Source: a virus (lineage: Duplodnaviria > Caudoviricetes). Taken from it: DNA of 64,000 nucleotides. The DNA is taken from the IMG/VR virus record IMGVR_UViG_3300028886_000037, positions 160,001 through 224,000 of that record; one strand, 5' to 3'. The notes beneath the pieces were generated by a model that ran no database searches, was not told the origin of the DNA, and was given only the letters and a program-made list of their open reading frames with translations. This document shows, in pieces, positions 23,822 to 55,247 of this stretch (the stretch's first letter is position 1; each line of letters opens with the position of its first letter). The position numbers and the translations under genes were made by a program.

Positions 23822-24349
23822 CTATTCTCCCAAGTAAGATACGCCGTTCACATAGTAGTCGCAGTTGTGCACAGCGAAATTGTGACACTCGGCCAAGAAT
23901 TCGTGAAGCTGTCTGGGAAGCACGAACTTCTGCTCGCCACGCTCATCGTCTGTGCCTTCGAAAGTCACGACGAAGCTTCCAGGCTCTGGTACGGGCTGCT
24001 CTTCAGTATTGGCGAAGTCGACGAGTTCTAGACCATCATATTTCAGAATGAAGAAAAAGTCATTCTCTCCGATTGCAGTTCTACCGTGATGTCCGATCAA
24101 GCACTCGTTCTTTTCGAGTTCAGGTGCGAGATAGACCTTGATGACTCCATTGAGAGTTCCCAAGTAGCCATATTCAGAGACTTTATCCGGACGTTCGGCC
24201 ATGAAGATCGGATCAGCATTGAGAGCAGTTCCTACAGCTTCGCCCACATAGAGACAGTCGCCACAGTAGTTGCACTTTGCTTGACAGTCGTTAGCAGCGT
24301 GCAGGATAGTAGCGATGAGGCGTCCAATTCTAGCACGGCTCCACGTCAT
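23822..24349 (-). CDS. stand-alone homolog of the gp23 major capsid protein A-domain segment
   Basis: W..LI..I..AN...G...V...V..L...YLGTLNGVIKVY..P...LIG..G aligns by eye with T4 gp23 RWAGE..FAGVLGGKYRVYIDQY..TVGYKG. Confidence 0.6.
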   Translation of the reverse strand: MTWSRARIGRLIATILHAANDCQAKCNYCGDCLYVGEAVGTALNADPIFMAERPDKVSEYGYLGTLNGVIKVYLAPELEKNECLIGHHGRTAIGENDFFFILKYDGLELVDFANTEEQPVPEPGSFVVTFEGTDDERGEQKFVLPRQLHEFLAECHNFAVHNCDYYVNGVSYLGE

Positions 24350-24450
24350 TCCATCGTTCTATGCTAGAGTGAAGTTTCTCGGTTCTGCATTTTCCTTTAG
24401 TTTCTTGATGTCGATCATTTGTGTTCCTTTTTTTTGAATTTCCCTGTCCT

Positions 24451-27400
24451 TTATGCTCGATGGCGGAAGTTGCCTTTCTCATCTTTCACGATCTCGTCGA
24501 CGAATTCGAACTTCCGTCTGATCTTGATAACTGCATGGTCGTGTGAAAACTTGTGATGAGTCTTGTAAAAAGTCATCATTCTGTAAGCGCTTCTAGGAGA
24601 CCTGAAGGTTTTAGCTGCAGGAAGAAAGTCTGTCACTGGTACATTTTCTCCGATATACATAGCTTTTCCGGGCTGTTCTGGTCTCTCGAACTTGACTACA
24701 TAGATGAAATCTTGGATCATATTATTAGGATTTGATCTGTTTTTCCAAGTACCTTATGTACTTTTCAAGTTTCTTGATGTATTGGTCTCTATCGTCGCAT
24801 GCGTTGTACCAAGCACTAAGAGACGCCATCTCTTCGATGTCGCCTATGCACTCGTACTCAGGCTTTTCTGGTTTCTTTACACTTCTCATTTTCAATAATT
24901 CCTGTGATCTCGAAGGTGCGCTTCACTCGCAGAATTACGAAGTCATGTGCGAACCCGTTGTTGCGAGAGTGATACGATACGGATTGATTAGCGTTCTTCA
25001 TAGTCTTGAAGAACTTAGCTTCTGAGAGCTCGGTCGTGTAGTAAGCGTCCTGACTGATATACTGCAAAATATCTTCGCCGTCTTTGCCACACGGCATCTT
25101 GCACTGTACTACGAAGTTCTCTAGTGTGATCATTATAACCCCAGTTTGCTCTTGAGGTCAGCCAATACTGCTGGATCTTCAATATCGGTGACGTTGTTGA
25201 TCTCTTTGTCCATGTCGATGATATAGTCTTCCTTCTGGAAACGCTTGAGAACGACCTGAGGGCCAAACGTGTCTCGATTGATCTTACGCTGGTAAACTAC
25301 GCCGTGCATATCGTTCTTGAGGAGCCACTGTCTCATCTGCTCGTCTTGAGGGTTCGATACGATGTCGACTAAGAGACTCTTCGTTGTCGGATTGATGTGA
25401 AGATGATGGATCTTGTCAGAGTTCCGGTCGATAGAAATTCTAGAGTACACTCTCATCATGCCGATGAAAGAATCTTCGCCTAGGACGAACTCCATGCTGC
25501 TCGATGGTTGAGCTATCCAGCCGCCGTCGTCGTTCGAGTGGACCTCTTCCTCACGCACTGCGACAGACAGCATGATTCCGCCGTCCCTGACGTTGGGTGT
25601 GTGCCATTGGAGAATGCTCGGAATGTACCACTGCTTGAGTTTCTCATATTCCATGAGTTTCGGTATGAAGTATAGATCGATTCCTTCATTAGCTGTCGCC
25701 CATTCCTTGCGCTCCCAGTCATTCGCTTCATCCATAGACACTTTTCTGAAGCGCATAATCGGTTCGGCATTAGTTTCTTCGCTCATAAGTTCCTCTTGTT
25801 TTTGTACAATCTAGAAAAAAGCGGTGCAAAACTAAATAGCCTTGCACCACATTTTCTTTGATTTTACGTATTTTTAAGCGGGAATGAACGAAATGTGGAT
25901 GTCTGTGATCTGATTGTCATCTTGTCTCTTGACTTTTATGGAGTCGACCGAGACTAGATTGATTCCTAGCTGATTGACGATGAATTCGCCGAGCTTGTTC
26001 GCTGCAGGATCTTCTTTCATATCTTGCATGAGATTGTTCTGCTTTTTCATGTACTTGTCCACGTCGAAGGGGAGTTCGACATGCAGCGAGTAGCCGTTGT
26101 TGATGACGCCATACTTCACCTTGCAGTCTTCCTTGCATTTCTTCATCGCTTCACGTAGTCTTTCCCAAGACTTCTGAGAGACATCATACTCCAGAACGCC
26201 ATCGGCATAGTCTAGAAAGTCGTAGAGTCTCTCTTCGAGATTTGTTAGTTCACGTTTGATCATACTCTTTCCTCTTCTTTAGTCTTCTTTAGGAGCGAAC
26301 GGGTTCTTGATGACCTTAGCCTTAGTGCTCTTCAACTGGCCAGGATCGTCGTCCCAGATGTGAAGATGGTCATACTGGAATGTTCCGGAGAAGGATCCAG
26401 TCAGCGAGAGTGCGATGCCGAAGCCCTCGTTAGCCATAGCTGTCAGAAGCTCGATGTTATCTTGCGTAGGAATGACCTTCACTTCTGCGTAGATAGTGCC
26501 CTGCCATTCCTCTTTCTCGTCTGGATTCCTGACGAGCTCGGGTCTGCGAACGAAGAACATCGGCTTGCCGTTCACTTCGAGGATCATCTTGCCAAGGATC
26601 CAGTAGCGATGATCTTCAGTCGTCAGATATTCGGCATCCATGCCCTTGAGAGAGTCAAAAGCAGTTCCACCGCCAAATCCGCCATAGTACATGTAGTTCG
26701 ATCCGAAGGAAACCTTGATCCATAGCTCGTCTGAATTGTTCTGATCTTTTTCACAGACCCAACGCCCTTCGCGAGTCTTAAGTATCTCTTTCAGCATCTT
26801 GCTCGTGATTAGCGGTCTGAATAGATTGTCTAGCATTCTTCATTCTCCATAGGCTTAATTCTATCTACGATAGCTCGTTCAAGTTCGTGAAGCTTCTCGT
26901 AGGAACAGATCATTCCCTGCCATAGACCTTTTCGTTCGCCATATCCCTTTTCTGATAAGACGGCAAAGTAGGACCCTGGCAGGACTTCATCTCTGTTCTC
27001 GAAGTACACGCAGTATTCTTTATATCCGTTCTCGTATCTGATGTAGTGGCAGCTTCCGTTGTCCTCGCGCTTGTACTCGATCCGGTAGTTGTAGAGCAGC
27101 TTCTCGATTTTCTCGATTGGCATCTTCCAGACGGGAATATCCTCACTCTCTTCTGACTGTTCCTTAACAGGTTCTTTAGGAGCCTCTTCTGGCTGTTCGT
27201 TGTTAGCCTCTTTAGGCTTTTCATCTTCCAGAATCGAATCGAGCTCAGCGAGATATTTCTCCATGCTCTCTGGATTGAACACGTCGTCTCGGTAGATTAC
27301 GCAACCGACCTTTACATCTGGATCTATGTCGAACTTGCTGATCGTAACGAGGTTGCTCAGATCTTGTTTCAGTTCGAACTTGATTCTGTACTTGTGATTG

Positions 27401-30100
27401 CCGAGTTCGAATCTTACTGTATAGGCAGATCCATAGTCTTTAGCCTCAAATGGAAGTCCGTGATCATTCAGCTTTCTCTCAGTGAGTTCAGCTACGCAGT
27501 CCCACTCGACCCTGGTAGGTTCTAGCTTCTTGAAACCTATCTGGTCGTCTTTTCTGACAGCGCCCGCCTTAGCCATCTTAGCTTTCTGACAGCAGACCCC
27601 ATGAATGCACTCGCCGCATGTCTCTGTGCTAGGAATGCAGATATCCGGATCGAACACGTACTTGTCTCCGACCTTTTCTGCTACCTGAAAGTATCTCGGA
27701 TCCTTAGGTTGTTCATCTACTGGAGACAGATCGCTAAGGTAGCGCTCCTGGAACTCTTCATCAGTCTCTTGATTATCATCAGGCTGTGTCTCTTCGGTCT
27801 TACCCACGATGCTGTCGAATCCAGCTACGCCCATCATGTGTTCCTCGAACTCGATTAGCGTGACCGTGTCAGCGTCAACATATCGGATGAGAATGTAGCC
27901 AGGCTTGTTCATCGGATGGAAGATGTCGGGAATGAGCTCGAACTGATTACCCTCGATCTGACCCTGCCACAGCATATTGCCAATTGGCTCTAGACGCATG
28001 ATGAGACTCAGCGCCGTGAGAATGTCTGGCGTAGTGATCATCACGAATCTGCGCTTCAGATTAGCAGTGATCTTGATGAATTCGGTGATCTGACGGAACT
28101 TGTCGATCGGAAACAAGTCGTCTGACGGTTGAAAGTGAAATGTGCTCTTTAAGATTTTCATAGTTATTCCTCTGTGCTCTCTATCCAGAAGTCAGCGCTT
28201 ACGAGCGCATCACGCTCGTCTAGATGGTAAGTGCGATTCCTGAGCTTGAAGTTGTTCTTTTCAAGAACATTTTTGATCATAGTGTCGATTGGTGCTAGAT
28301 CTGTGTACTTGTTTGAGGGACGGATCTTGATCATGCCCTTCACGATGGGTTCGTAGCATTGATGACGGAATCTCGTCATCTCTCTAGAGTGGCCAGGCGT
28401 CTGCTCGGCATCGTCGATGATGTCAAGCTTACTGCATAGAACTCCGCTTAGCTTAAATTTCATAGTTTGGTGTCCTTGAGTTGATCTTGAATTCTTTCGA
28501 CATAGCGTCGATCTCTCGGTAAGTGTTTCCGATCAAGACGAACATGCCGTCGTCTGGAAGCTTGTTCTCTTCCCACTGTTTCTGAACACGATAAGCGTTT
28601 ACGACGGTCATCAGATTCTCTTGAAGAGTCTTGAACTCCTCTTCCGCATCCTGATGGTAACGGATCTCGATGTTGAACGCTTCGTGATCCGTGTCTTTAG
28701 CCTTCGTGATCATCACCACGAGCTTGTAGTCATCAAGTATCTTTTTTACAATTTCCATGTGTTTTTCCTGTGACTCCGCAGTCGAAGATCATCTGGATCG
28801 GTCTTCCTTGCTTTGTCCTGTTCAGCCACGGCACATCGAGCTTGAAGTGTCTGACACGGCCTTCGATCTCTTTCTGCAAATCCCAGCCGTTCTTGTTTGA
28901 ACGGAAGCTGAAAGTCTGAATTACAGTAGATCCGCCTCCATCAGACGTGTAGAACGTGACCATGTAGACGTGATGTCTATCTCCCTTCATTTTTTCTTTA
29001 CCTCTCTGTCGTATTGCTGATTGAGACGAAAAAGCATCGTGTCGACTTCCTCGGGCTGGAGTCTAGCCAACCAGTCGACTAAGCTCTTCTTTACGTTCTC
29101 TTTCACGGTTCGCCCTTTAGGAAGCTCTTCACCATCTCGTCCTGCGCTTCTCGAACACGATTCACGATCTCTCTCACTTCGTCTTCTGTGTACTCACGCT
29201 CGATCTCGTCCAGATCGACTCTGACCTGCTGAGAGTTGAAGATAGAGAAGTCGACCTTCTCGAAGTTGTGGTCTACGATGTGATTCGCAGCGTCGAATCC
29301 GTCTGGATTCATGTTGACGTCGAGAACACGTCCCTCGAACTCGATAGTAGTCTCCCAGCAGTATCTTACGCCAGTCACGTACAGGAAGTAGTATCGGTAG
29401 ATCAGCTCATGCTTGTTCAACGGAGACAGTCCACGCCAGTACTGCTTGACGCGAATGATCTTGCCCTTGTACTGCTTCAGTGCAGCTTCCTTGCGGTTGT
29501 TGCCCTGACTGTTTCTGTACTCGTCCAGCTCGTTCTGCTTCGCATTGAGCTGCTCTTTGAGCTGATCACGTTCTGCTTTCAGTCTCAGTTCTGTCTCATC
29601 GATATGCTTTGAGAATCCCTTAATCATCATTTATCACCTCTCGGCCAGTAGAATAGAAATATAGCTAAATTTGCGATACCCAGGAATAGTGCATAGAGGA
29701 TGTAGAGCAGGATGTAGACTGTGATCTTCAGAATGTACCAGCCGCTCATCCACTGAGCAGCTTCGATGAAGAACCAGCCTCTGTCTGTCGGCTCGTCTGT
29801 CCTGTTAGTCACGTTTCCGTGTGTCTCGTACTTCAGATCGCATGCGCCGAGTCCGTAGAAGAACAGCATCAGAACTGCGTTTCCTATCAGCACTGATCCA
29901 AGGAGAGCAGGAGCGAAGCCCATGATGACTCCAGGAAGAGAGTACCCCAATGAGACGATAGCTGCGAACAGAACCCAAGCGAACGCAGTAGATCTCCGAA
30001 AGAAGTCCTTTCCAGCGTACTCTAGCGGAGTTTCGATTCGGTAGTATTGCTTCACGGCAGACTCCAAGTTAGTGCGACTTGCCTGTCGATTACGTGACAT
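24451..30100 (-). other. array of hypothetical early genes
   Basis: ORFs 24451-24720, 24858-25133, 25133-25786, 25874-26263, 26279-26836, 26830-28161, 28164-28463, 28453-28758, 28733-28990, 29103-29630, 29627-30100 (membrane). Confidence 0.7.
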
Positions 30101-54440: not shown

Positions 54441-55130
54441 TTAGATGTGGCGATATACTTCGAAGAATTCTTTGAACGCCTCGGCGACAGCCTTAGATCC
54501 GCCAGCGTCAAGCTTCTTGTCGAAAGCTTCCTTAGCGGGCTCAAGAGTCTTGATAGCCTCTTCTGGTGTGTGCTGGATGCGCTTCTCGATGTAGAGACCA
54601 GTGGACTCGTTCAATACCCACTCATAGGACTCGTTCACTGCGTTGACGTAAGCGTCCGGACATGAAGGTCCGAGAACTGCGTCAATAGTGATCAAGTGGA
54701 AGTTGGACTCCACGATACCAGTGTCTTCGTTCACGTCGCCAACGCCTCTAGAGGAGACGCCCATTCTCACGTCGACGAGAAGACCAGCGAGCATCTTGCC
54801 GTTCGGCATATACTCAAGAACCTTAGCCTTGCCGATAGCGAAGTCCTCGTCCATGCGTAGAGAGCAGATCTTGATTGCTGCTTCCTTGGAGTTCACCTTC
54901 GCATATTCCGGGTGCTCTAGCTCACCAAGGCACTCGTTGCTGTTGATCAGCTTGTTCAAGGACGTTACTTCTCGTTCGATCAATTCACGCGGATAAGTTC
55001 TACCATTTCTGTTCTTCTTTCCAGCTCCCATGAAGACGCCCTCGATGTACAGAGACTTAGACTCGTTGTCTCTATTAGAAGTGACGTCGCTGAGATACGC
55101 TTCGTTCAAAAGTTTCTTATGTTCAGCCAT
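54441..55130 (-). CDS. prohead core protease (T4 gp21-like)
   Basis: NRNGRTYP, LGELEHP, GVSSRG, DAV..PS; TATAAATA at 55161-55168. Confidence 0.93.
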   Translation of the reverse strand: MAEHKKLLNEAYLSDVTSNRDNESKSLYIEGVFMGAGKKNRNGRTYPRELIEREVTSLNKLINSNECLGELEHPEYAKVNSKEAAIKICSLRMDEDFAIGKAKVLEYMPNGKMLAGLLVDVRMGVSSRGVGDVNEDTGIVESNFHLITIDAVLGPSCPDAYVNAVNESYEWVLNESTGLYIEKRIQHTPEEAIKTLEPAKEAFDKKLDAGGSKAVAEAFKEFFEVYRHI

Positions 55131-55247
55131 TTTACAGCTCCTTAAACTCTTTGTACCTATTATTTATACAAAGCCGATGTCTCAATACTGTCTAAACACA
55201 AGAAAAACGAGACAAAAATGTCTCGATTCTTGTCTCGATTTTGTCTC

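Follow-up and report, generated by a model that had tools for sequence, protein, structure and literature searches.

A stand-alone A-domain of the T4-type major capsid protein gp23 in an accessory region of a large uncultured phage

Why does a T4-like phage carry, among small accessory genes, an open reading frame resembling one part of its major capsid protein gp23? The question arose in a window of 64,000 bp (positions 160001-224000 in a virus record of 247,923 bp with a completeness estimate of 98%), where the initial annotation had described a gp23 A-domain fragment with a different C-terminal domain, lying among early genes and far from any head operon, and had suggested a decoy for capsid sensors or a dominant-negative directed at competing phages. 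The structural half of this description was borne out, as the locus encodes a stand-alone gp23 A-domain joined to a foreign C-terminal domain. To place the gene, we combined profile and structure searches with the analysis of relatives, selection and gene neighbourhood.

Gene limits and the amber codon

The ORF of 175 aa is present as initially described, but its limits are not those of the true gene, which comprises 198 codons and starts at ATG 24418 behind the AAGGAA site (Table 1). The 23 residues encoded at 24350-24418 open the protein in all 15 of 15 full-length relatives (197-200 aa), and ATG 24349 is not preceded by a site comparable to AAGGAA. In the window copy the frame is broken by an in-frame TAG at a position where the codon alignment has GAG in four relatives (L005, L010, L011 and L013) and where Glu is nearly invariant in the protein alignment. 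This TAG is either a true allele or an assembly error; as the dN/dS of the window copy against its relatives is not raised, the stop is recent if it is not such an error. The 175-aa product could arise only via re-initiation at Met24, 9 nt past the amber codon, a residue that the protein alignment shows to be kept in many relatives and not in all, and according to the structural model described below the domain in such a product would be short of its first helix and strand. The window copy is probably a null or a hypomorph if no restart takes place at Met24. The gene belongs to a tightly packed, co-oriented run of small genes, in which the downstream neighbour starts 1 nt past its stop and the upstream neighbour ends at 24451.

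Read-through of the TAG by a phage suppressor tRNA was considered and is not relied on, the genome being without general stop-codon recoding. Among the 37 tRNA genes reported by ARAGORN, one outside the window has the anticodon UUA, of the ochre-suppressor type (G000:C1:153019-153091, minus strand). It carries two mismatches in the anticodon stem and is possibly not a functional suppressor but a tRNA-like RNA.

Table 1. Features of the A-domain gene, in positions of the window.
Feature	Position	Strand	Remarks
Full gene, as kept in relatives	23822..24418	-	198 codons and stop (TAG 23822-23824); broken at codon 20 here
Shine-Dalgarno-like AAGGAA	24424..24429	-	5 nt upstream of ATG 24418; read directly in the sequence
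In-frame amber codon TAG, codon 20	24359..24361	-	codon alignment and protein alignment against relatives
ORF of the initial annotation, 175 aa from Met24	23822..24349	-	only by re-initiation past the amber codon
N-terminal module, residues 1-130, exapted gp23 A-domain	24029..24418	-	helix, strand, long helix, strand, helix, beta-hairpin, strands
Acidic, proline-containing linker, residues ~131-146	23981..24028	-	low model confidence
C-terminal module, residues ~147-198	23825..23980	-	predicted: two strands, helix, hairpin

Homology to gp23 and predicted structure

The N-terminal module (N-module) is a diverged copy of the axial A-domain of the T4-type gp23 of this phage lineage. The Pfam family Gp23 (PF07068) matched the 175-aa ORF with an E-value of 0.0024, residues 2-92 aligning to profile positions 215-312, and the scores of 17.8 bits for this ORF and 20.9 bits for the 198-aa read-through product remain below the whole-protein gathering cut-off of 24.4 bits. 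All 16 of 16 close family members match PF07068 weakly (best E 4.9e-6), and PHROGs gave a weak match to “major head protein” for the 175-aa ORF. Comparison with the phage's own full gp23 revealed 28% identity over 98 aa (gp23 aa 280-377), with a BLASTP E-value of 2e-7 in the pairwise search and of 8.8e-5 when the search was run against all ORFs of the genome. Furthermore, a profile of the stand-alone family, made from 18 diverse members, matched the genome at two loci only, this ORF and gp23 (aa 278-377, E 2.6e-16, 57 bits), and recognised every one of ~120 gp23 proteins of the clade with 39-62 bits. The alignment with gp23 is collinear and passes through the motifs W-S-Q-x-R, A-x-N, G-(N/D)-x-x-x-V, a helix ending in T-x-L and G-x-L-N-G-x-I-x-V-(Y/F), followed by strands. 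By the Pfam, BLASTP and profile evidence, the first ~90-115 aa are thus homologous, in order, to the gp23 segment to which they had been aligned by eye. As had also been noticed, no other part of the HK97 fold is present, the match being confined to profile positions ~198-312 of 376 and the protein having 198 aa against 449 in gp23. Without an N-arm, E-loop and P-domain, the protein cannot serve to build the shell.

We also compared 12 diverse stand-alone members with the 35 columns that are invariant in the gp23 proteins of the clade. Identity was 50% at these columns and 16% at variable ones; between 10 and 12 of the 12 members retain the W-S-Q-x-R, N43 and G-L-N-G-I-V blocks, and the gp23-invariant R304, S-P and K-G are lost. 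A chance resemblance without kinship to gp23 would agree with the single-sequence Pfam match lying under the gathering score, with the search of PDB sequences by the family profile, which missed T4 gp23 and any other gp23 and returned only a spurious repeat match to a designed TIM barrel, and with the search of 1.8 billion proteins, where no full-length single-copy gp23 was listed at E <= 0.001 and the sole match of capsid length was P0036. It is ruled out by the profile match within the phage's own genome, by the scores of all clade gp23 proteins, by the collinear motifs and by the structure search, which ranks T4 gp23 first; its probability is negligible and the gp23 homology of the N-module is firm. 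P0036 itself is a metagenomic protein of 702 aa that consists of two tandem gp23-like capsid halves, with the A-domain profile matching at 205-275 and 526-616.

The structure predicted by AF2 from the 16 close relatives only was unusable (pLDDT 34), and the prediction from an alignment of 62 rows, which took in diverse stand-alone members and trimmed gp23 segments, reached a pLDDT of 80 and a pTM of 0.62. Owing to these gp23 segments, the likeness of the model to gp23 is partly built in, and the following Foldseek result is to be read accordingly: the first eight matches in the PDB were T4 gp23 or gp24. This agrees with the gp23 assignment of the initial annotation, and the sequence evidence for the kinship is independent of the structural model. 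Residues 1-130 of the model align only to the A-domain parts of capsid chains. Structural matches in BFVD include small uncharacterised proteins of the jumbo phages Erwinia Y3, Pseudomonas Noxifer and Phabio, and Achromobacter Motura. A C-x3-C-x2-C metal site was considered in the N-module and rejected as a family feature, the cysteines being confined to the closest subfamily.

The linker has a pLDDT below 50 at residues 135-143, and its composition varies among the aligned relatives. The C-terminal module (C-module) differs from gp23, as initially described, and is a separate unit of ~55 aa, predicted to be alpha/beta, with stand-alone relatives of its own. Its end, AVHNCD(Y/F)YVNG.SY.GE, is nearly invariant. 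The module occurs alone in proteins of 52-56 aa (P0024 and P0029) and in two other fusions, its relatives of either kind being P0023, P0024, P0028 and P0029. No Pfam family matched it, and searches of the genome found no second copy of either the N-module or the C-module.

Compared with gp23 (PF07068; PDB 5VF3 and 7VRT), the protein thus shares the homologous A-domain segment, ~130 of ~450 residues, and is without the propeptide, N-arm, E-loop and P-domain; in addition it has an unrelated C-terminal module, no late promoter and a position outside the head module. The vertex paralogue of gp23, gp24 (1YUE), is full-length and not a fragment. The gp23 of this phage is at most ~31% identical to the gp23 of any cultured phage, and this identity of only ~30% indicates a deep uncultured T4-like lineage. 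In a set of 50,697 phage records, nothing significant was found by megablast of the region or by tblastn of the protein.

Relatives, selection and gene neighbourhood

Metagenomes yielded sixteen full-length cluster representatives, on contigs of up to 254 kb; a scan of IMG/VR found no relatives. Pairwise comparison among five genomes gave dN/dS values of 0.14-0.23 at dS of 0.36-0.81 in both modules, which indicates purifying selection on the gene. Two relatives are deletion-fusions: in P0017 the upstream 89-aa gene is joined to residue ~58 of the A-domain gene, and in P0018 residue ~135 is joined to the middle of the gene two positions downstream, both junctions lying at short similar stretches. 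Together with the nonsense codon in the window, these fusions imply that the gene is dispensable at least sometimes.

An exhaustive scan of 1.8 billion representatives with a profile, together with a second, word-indexed search, also revealed the N-module in further short proteins of 105-258 aa with 25-40% identity, some of which consist of the N-module alone and others of which (P0025, P0026 and P0038) carry an N-terminal extension of ~125 aa. Between the C-terminal tail of P0031, another protein with an N-module, and the final 47 residues of the window ORF 25874-26263 (minus strand, 129 aa) the identity is 55% (E 2e-14), and the tail of this ORF has no other copy in the genome. Small modules are shuffled among these accessory proteins. 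A 678.8-kb contig carries one family member, surrounded by small genes without annotation. The shared region was used for an unrooted maximum-likelihood tree over ~140 columns, in which one branch (95/85) parts all 37 stand-alone rows from all 21 gp23 rows, and the stand-alone side has much longer internal branches; the tree is in keeping with a single ancient capture and rapid divergence thereafter. On the evidence of these sequences, this is an old, diverse, fast-evolving and selectively maintained family of stand-alone A-domains in large uncultured T4-like phages, its members bearing exchangeable additions at the N- or C-terminus.

A second gp23-derived mini-gene, P0172 (63 aa), lies ~3.4 kb downstream of the A-domain gene in close relatives (L011:8397-8588 on the plus strand, L010:8971-9162 and L012:8397-8588). 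It matches Pfam Gp23 with 27.6 bits, above the cut-off, and spans the gp23 hairpin and the following strands; the present genome has no copy of it. In the relative L005, the same accessory region holds an IS605-type TnpB gene (OrfB_IS605, Cas12f1-like_TNB; L005:625-1854, plus strand) ~3 kb upstream of the A-domain gene.

The claim that the gene lies far from any head operon held in part. The T4-type gp23 gene (449 aa, G000:84982-86331) adjoins a scaffold-like gene, and this gp22-gp23 pair is ~98 kb away from the A-domain gene; the prohead protease gp21, however, was found only 30 kb away in the same window (54441-55130, minus strand; Peptidase_S77 E 1.5e-31). As gp21 is itself ~130 kb from gp22-gp23, the head genes of this phage are dispersed. 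Directly upstream of gp21 there is a T4-type late promoter, TATAAATA, at 55161-55168, a sequence with 8 occurrences in the window where 0.6 would be expected. None was found on the same strand within 11 kb upstream of the A-domain gene, the nearest being 11.5 kb away, and by its position and by this absence of TATAAATA the gene would not belong to those expressed late within a head-gene module. Matches to sigma-70-like promoters were no commoner than in shuffled sequences, and we only infer the early class that had been ascribed to the gene.

The neighbours of the A-domain gene encode small proteins without family matches, and the loci of relatives look alike. We considered 25133-25786 and 26279-26836 as gp21-like and the N-terminus of 26830-28161 as gp23-like, and obtained support for none of the three: BLASTP of the former two against gp21 gave E-values of 0.63 and 6.6, the Peptidase_S77 model matches only the true gp21 in the genome, hhalign against the family profile returned a probability of 0.3%, and no relevant Pfam or PHROGs match was obtained. 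Two further neighbours on the minus strand, 24451-24720 and 24858-25133 (89 and 91 aa), are paralogues of each other (28% identity, E 5e-7 within the genome) and have no family match. A strong terminator-like hairpin at 25821-25850 (minus strand), with a 13-bp stem followed by a T-run, separates the ORFs 25874-26263 and 25133-25786; the transcription unit of the A-domain gene probably begins there.

Possible roles of the A-domain protein

The structural identity of the protein is firm; decoy, assembly modulator or another role are candidates for its function. As a whole, the data are best explained, with moderate confidence, by a conserved accessory gene for an A-domain scaffold exapted outside the head programme. 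The A-domain would have been recruited as a soluble scaffold for protein-protein interaction or oligomerisation, made outside the late head-gene programme, and it would present the attached module to a partner, for which the protein itself, gp23 and a host factor recognising the corresponding face of gp23 are candidates. In proteins with the HK97 fold, subunits within a capsomer touch one another chiefly through the two helices of the A-domain (Andreas & Giessen 2021, PMC8346489). Two blocks are kept family-wide, the polar beginning of the long helix (W-S-Q-x-R ... N) and the hairpin with G-x-L-N-G-x-I-x-V, a pattern of residues which suggests that selection acts to keep contacts of the A-domain type; these residues could also be determinants of the fold rather than of an interface. 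Against the scaffold counts that the only solved protein consisting of an A-domain alone is a dimer unlike the capsomer contacts (PMC11664910), as do the amber codon of the window copy and the deletion-fusions P0017 and P0018. A complex prediction of the N-module with residues 85-449 of the phage's own gp23 scored 0.00, which is no verdict and was counted neither way. If the protein is such a scaffold, we would roughly give somewhat less than half of the weight to a role unrelated to capsids, about a third to mimicry aimed at a gp23-binding host factor and about a quarter to contact with gp23.

The proposal of an immune decoy or sensor inhibitor, in which a soluble A-domain made before gp23 occupies a capsid sensor without activating it, appears unlikely. 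It envisages host sensors of the capsid core fold of the CapRel, Avs, Thoeris or CBASS type, and it draws on the fact that capsid proteins are established triggers of all four kinds of system and that Avs sensors bind conserved core folds, as well as on the clade-specific polar gp23 motifs that the family retains. Small accessory neighbours, the missing late promoter, fast evolution and variable loss or breakage are moreover the usual profile of a conflict gene; the nonsense codon in the window and the deletion-fusions of the relatives give the gene its accessory look, which fits a role in conflict and does not show one. A mimic of the trigger could, however, equally activate the sensor, an identity of only 28% to the phage's own gp23 makes faithful surface mimicry doubtful, and titration alone leaves the fused C-module and the varied fusions unexplained. 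None of the known anti-defence families matches the A-domain protein, and its likeness to the DNA mimic Ocr and the nucleotide sponges Tad/Acb is limited to the logic of the decoy proposal and the setting among small accessory genes; a November 2026 review of phage counter-defences holds no capsid-mimic decoy nor any other protein mimic of a capsid trigger. The broader notion that T4-like phages keep soluble A-domain look-alikes as pre-emptive decoys or inhibitors of capsid-core sensors has, likewise, a low and marginally smaller probability; if the decoy reading were true, this would be the first counter-defence working by mimicry of a protein trigger. We rate as quite improbable that the protein uses its A-domain to bind gp23 subunits on their A-domain face as a modulator of capsid assembly or a dominant-negative, either tuning the phage's own head assembly or poisoning the capsomers of a co-infecting related phage. 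The intra-capsomer contacts made by A-domain helices (PMC8346489), the retained gp23-invariant helix and hairpin motifs and the nearby P0172 of the relatives (27.6 bits) speak for such docking, whereas the gene is neither placed nor promoted with the head genes and poisoning of the phage's own capsomers would be costly. Finally, a functionless remnant, left over from a gp23 gene that was duplicated or captured and now decaying, with its frame open by chance, is very unlikely. It would account for the premature TAG at codon 20 in this genome and for the fusions to neighbouring genes by deletion in P0017 and P0018, but not for purifying selection at the family level (dN/dS 0.14-0.23 at dS up to 0.8), the conservation of length and of both modules in 15 intact relatives, the deep diversification of the family with intact frames, or the dN/dS of the window copy, which is not raised.

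The closest known kind to the proposed scaffold are the Family 4 “A-domain” encapsulins (PF08967/DUF1884; PF0899 of Pyrococcus furiosus, PDB 2PK8). These are proteins of ~100 aa consisting of the HK97 A-domain only, found in Pyrococcus, Thermococcus and a small number of Bacteroidota, in most cases encoded behind the gene for an enzyme (PMC8346489); no function has been assigned to them, and 2PK8, the single structure solved, shows a dimer (PMC8346489, PMC11664910). With Family 4 the present protein has in common an HK97 A-domain of ~100 aa on its own. It differs in deriving from the gp23 branch, as an independent exaptation, in being encoded by a phage (248-kb genome) and not by hyperthermophilic archaea or Bacteroidota, in the extra C-terminal module and in not being paired in an operon with the gene of an enzyme (hydrogenase, OsmC, GAPDH or DeoC), its neighbours being small and unmatched. 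PF08967 had no match genome-wide at E <= 10, nor in the Pfam scans of the ORF at E <= 10 and of the family members at E <= 1. Stand-alone HK97 A-domains have so far been known only from the few archaeal and Bacteroidota Family 4 encapsulins, and the same reduction arose independently from gp23 within phages, where it was selected, diversified and recombined with small modules. The gene offers a tractable soluble domain of ~130 residues for asking what an isolated A-domain binds, and a concrete candidate for testing phage mimicry against capsid-sensing immunity. It also carries a warning for annotation, as weak Gp23 matches in accessory regions are real exapted genes and not noise.

Elsewhere in the genome, outside the window, a 221-aa ORF (G000:C1:135859-136524, minus strand) contains 30 residues that are 83% identical to gp23 residues 52-81 (tblastn E 1.2e-11), the region around the expected maturation cleavage, and this stretch may be a shared propeptide or targeting piece.
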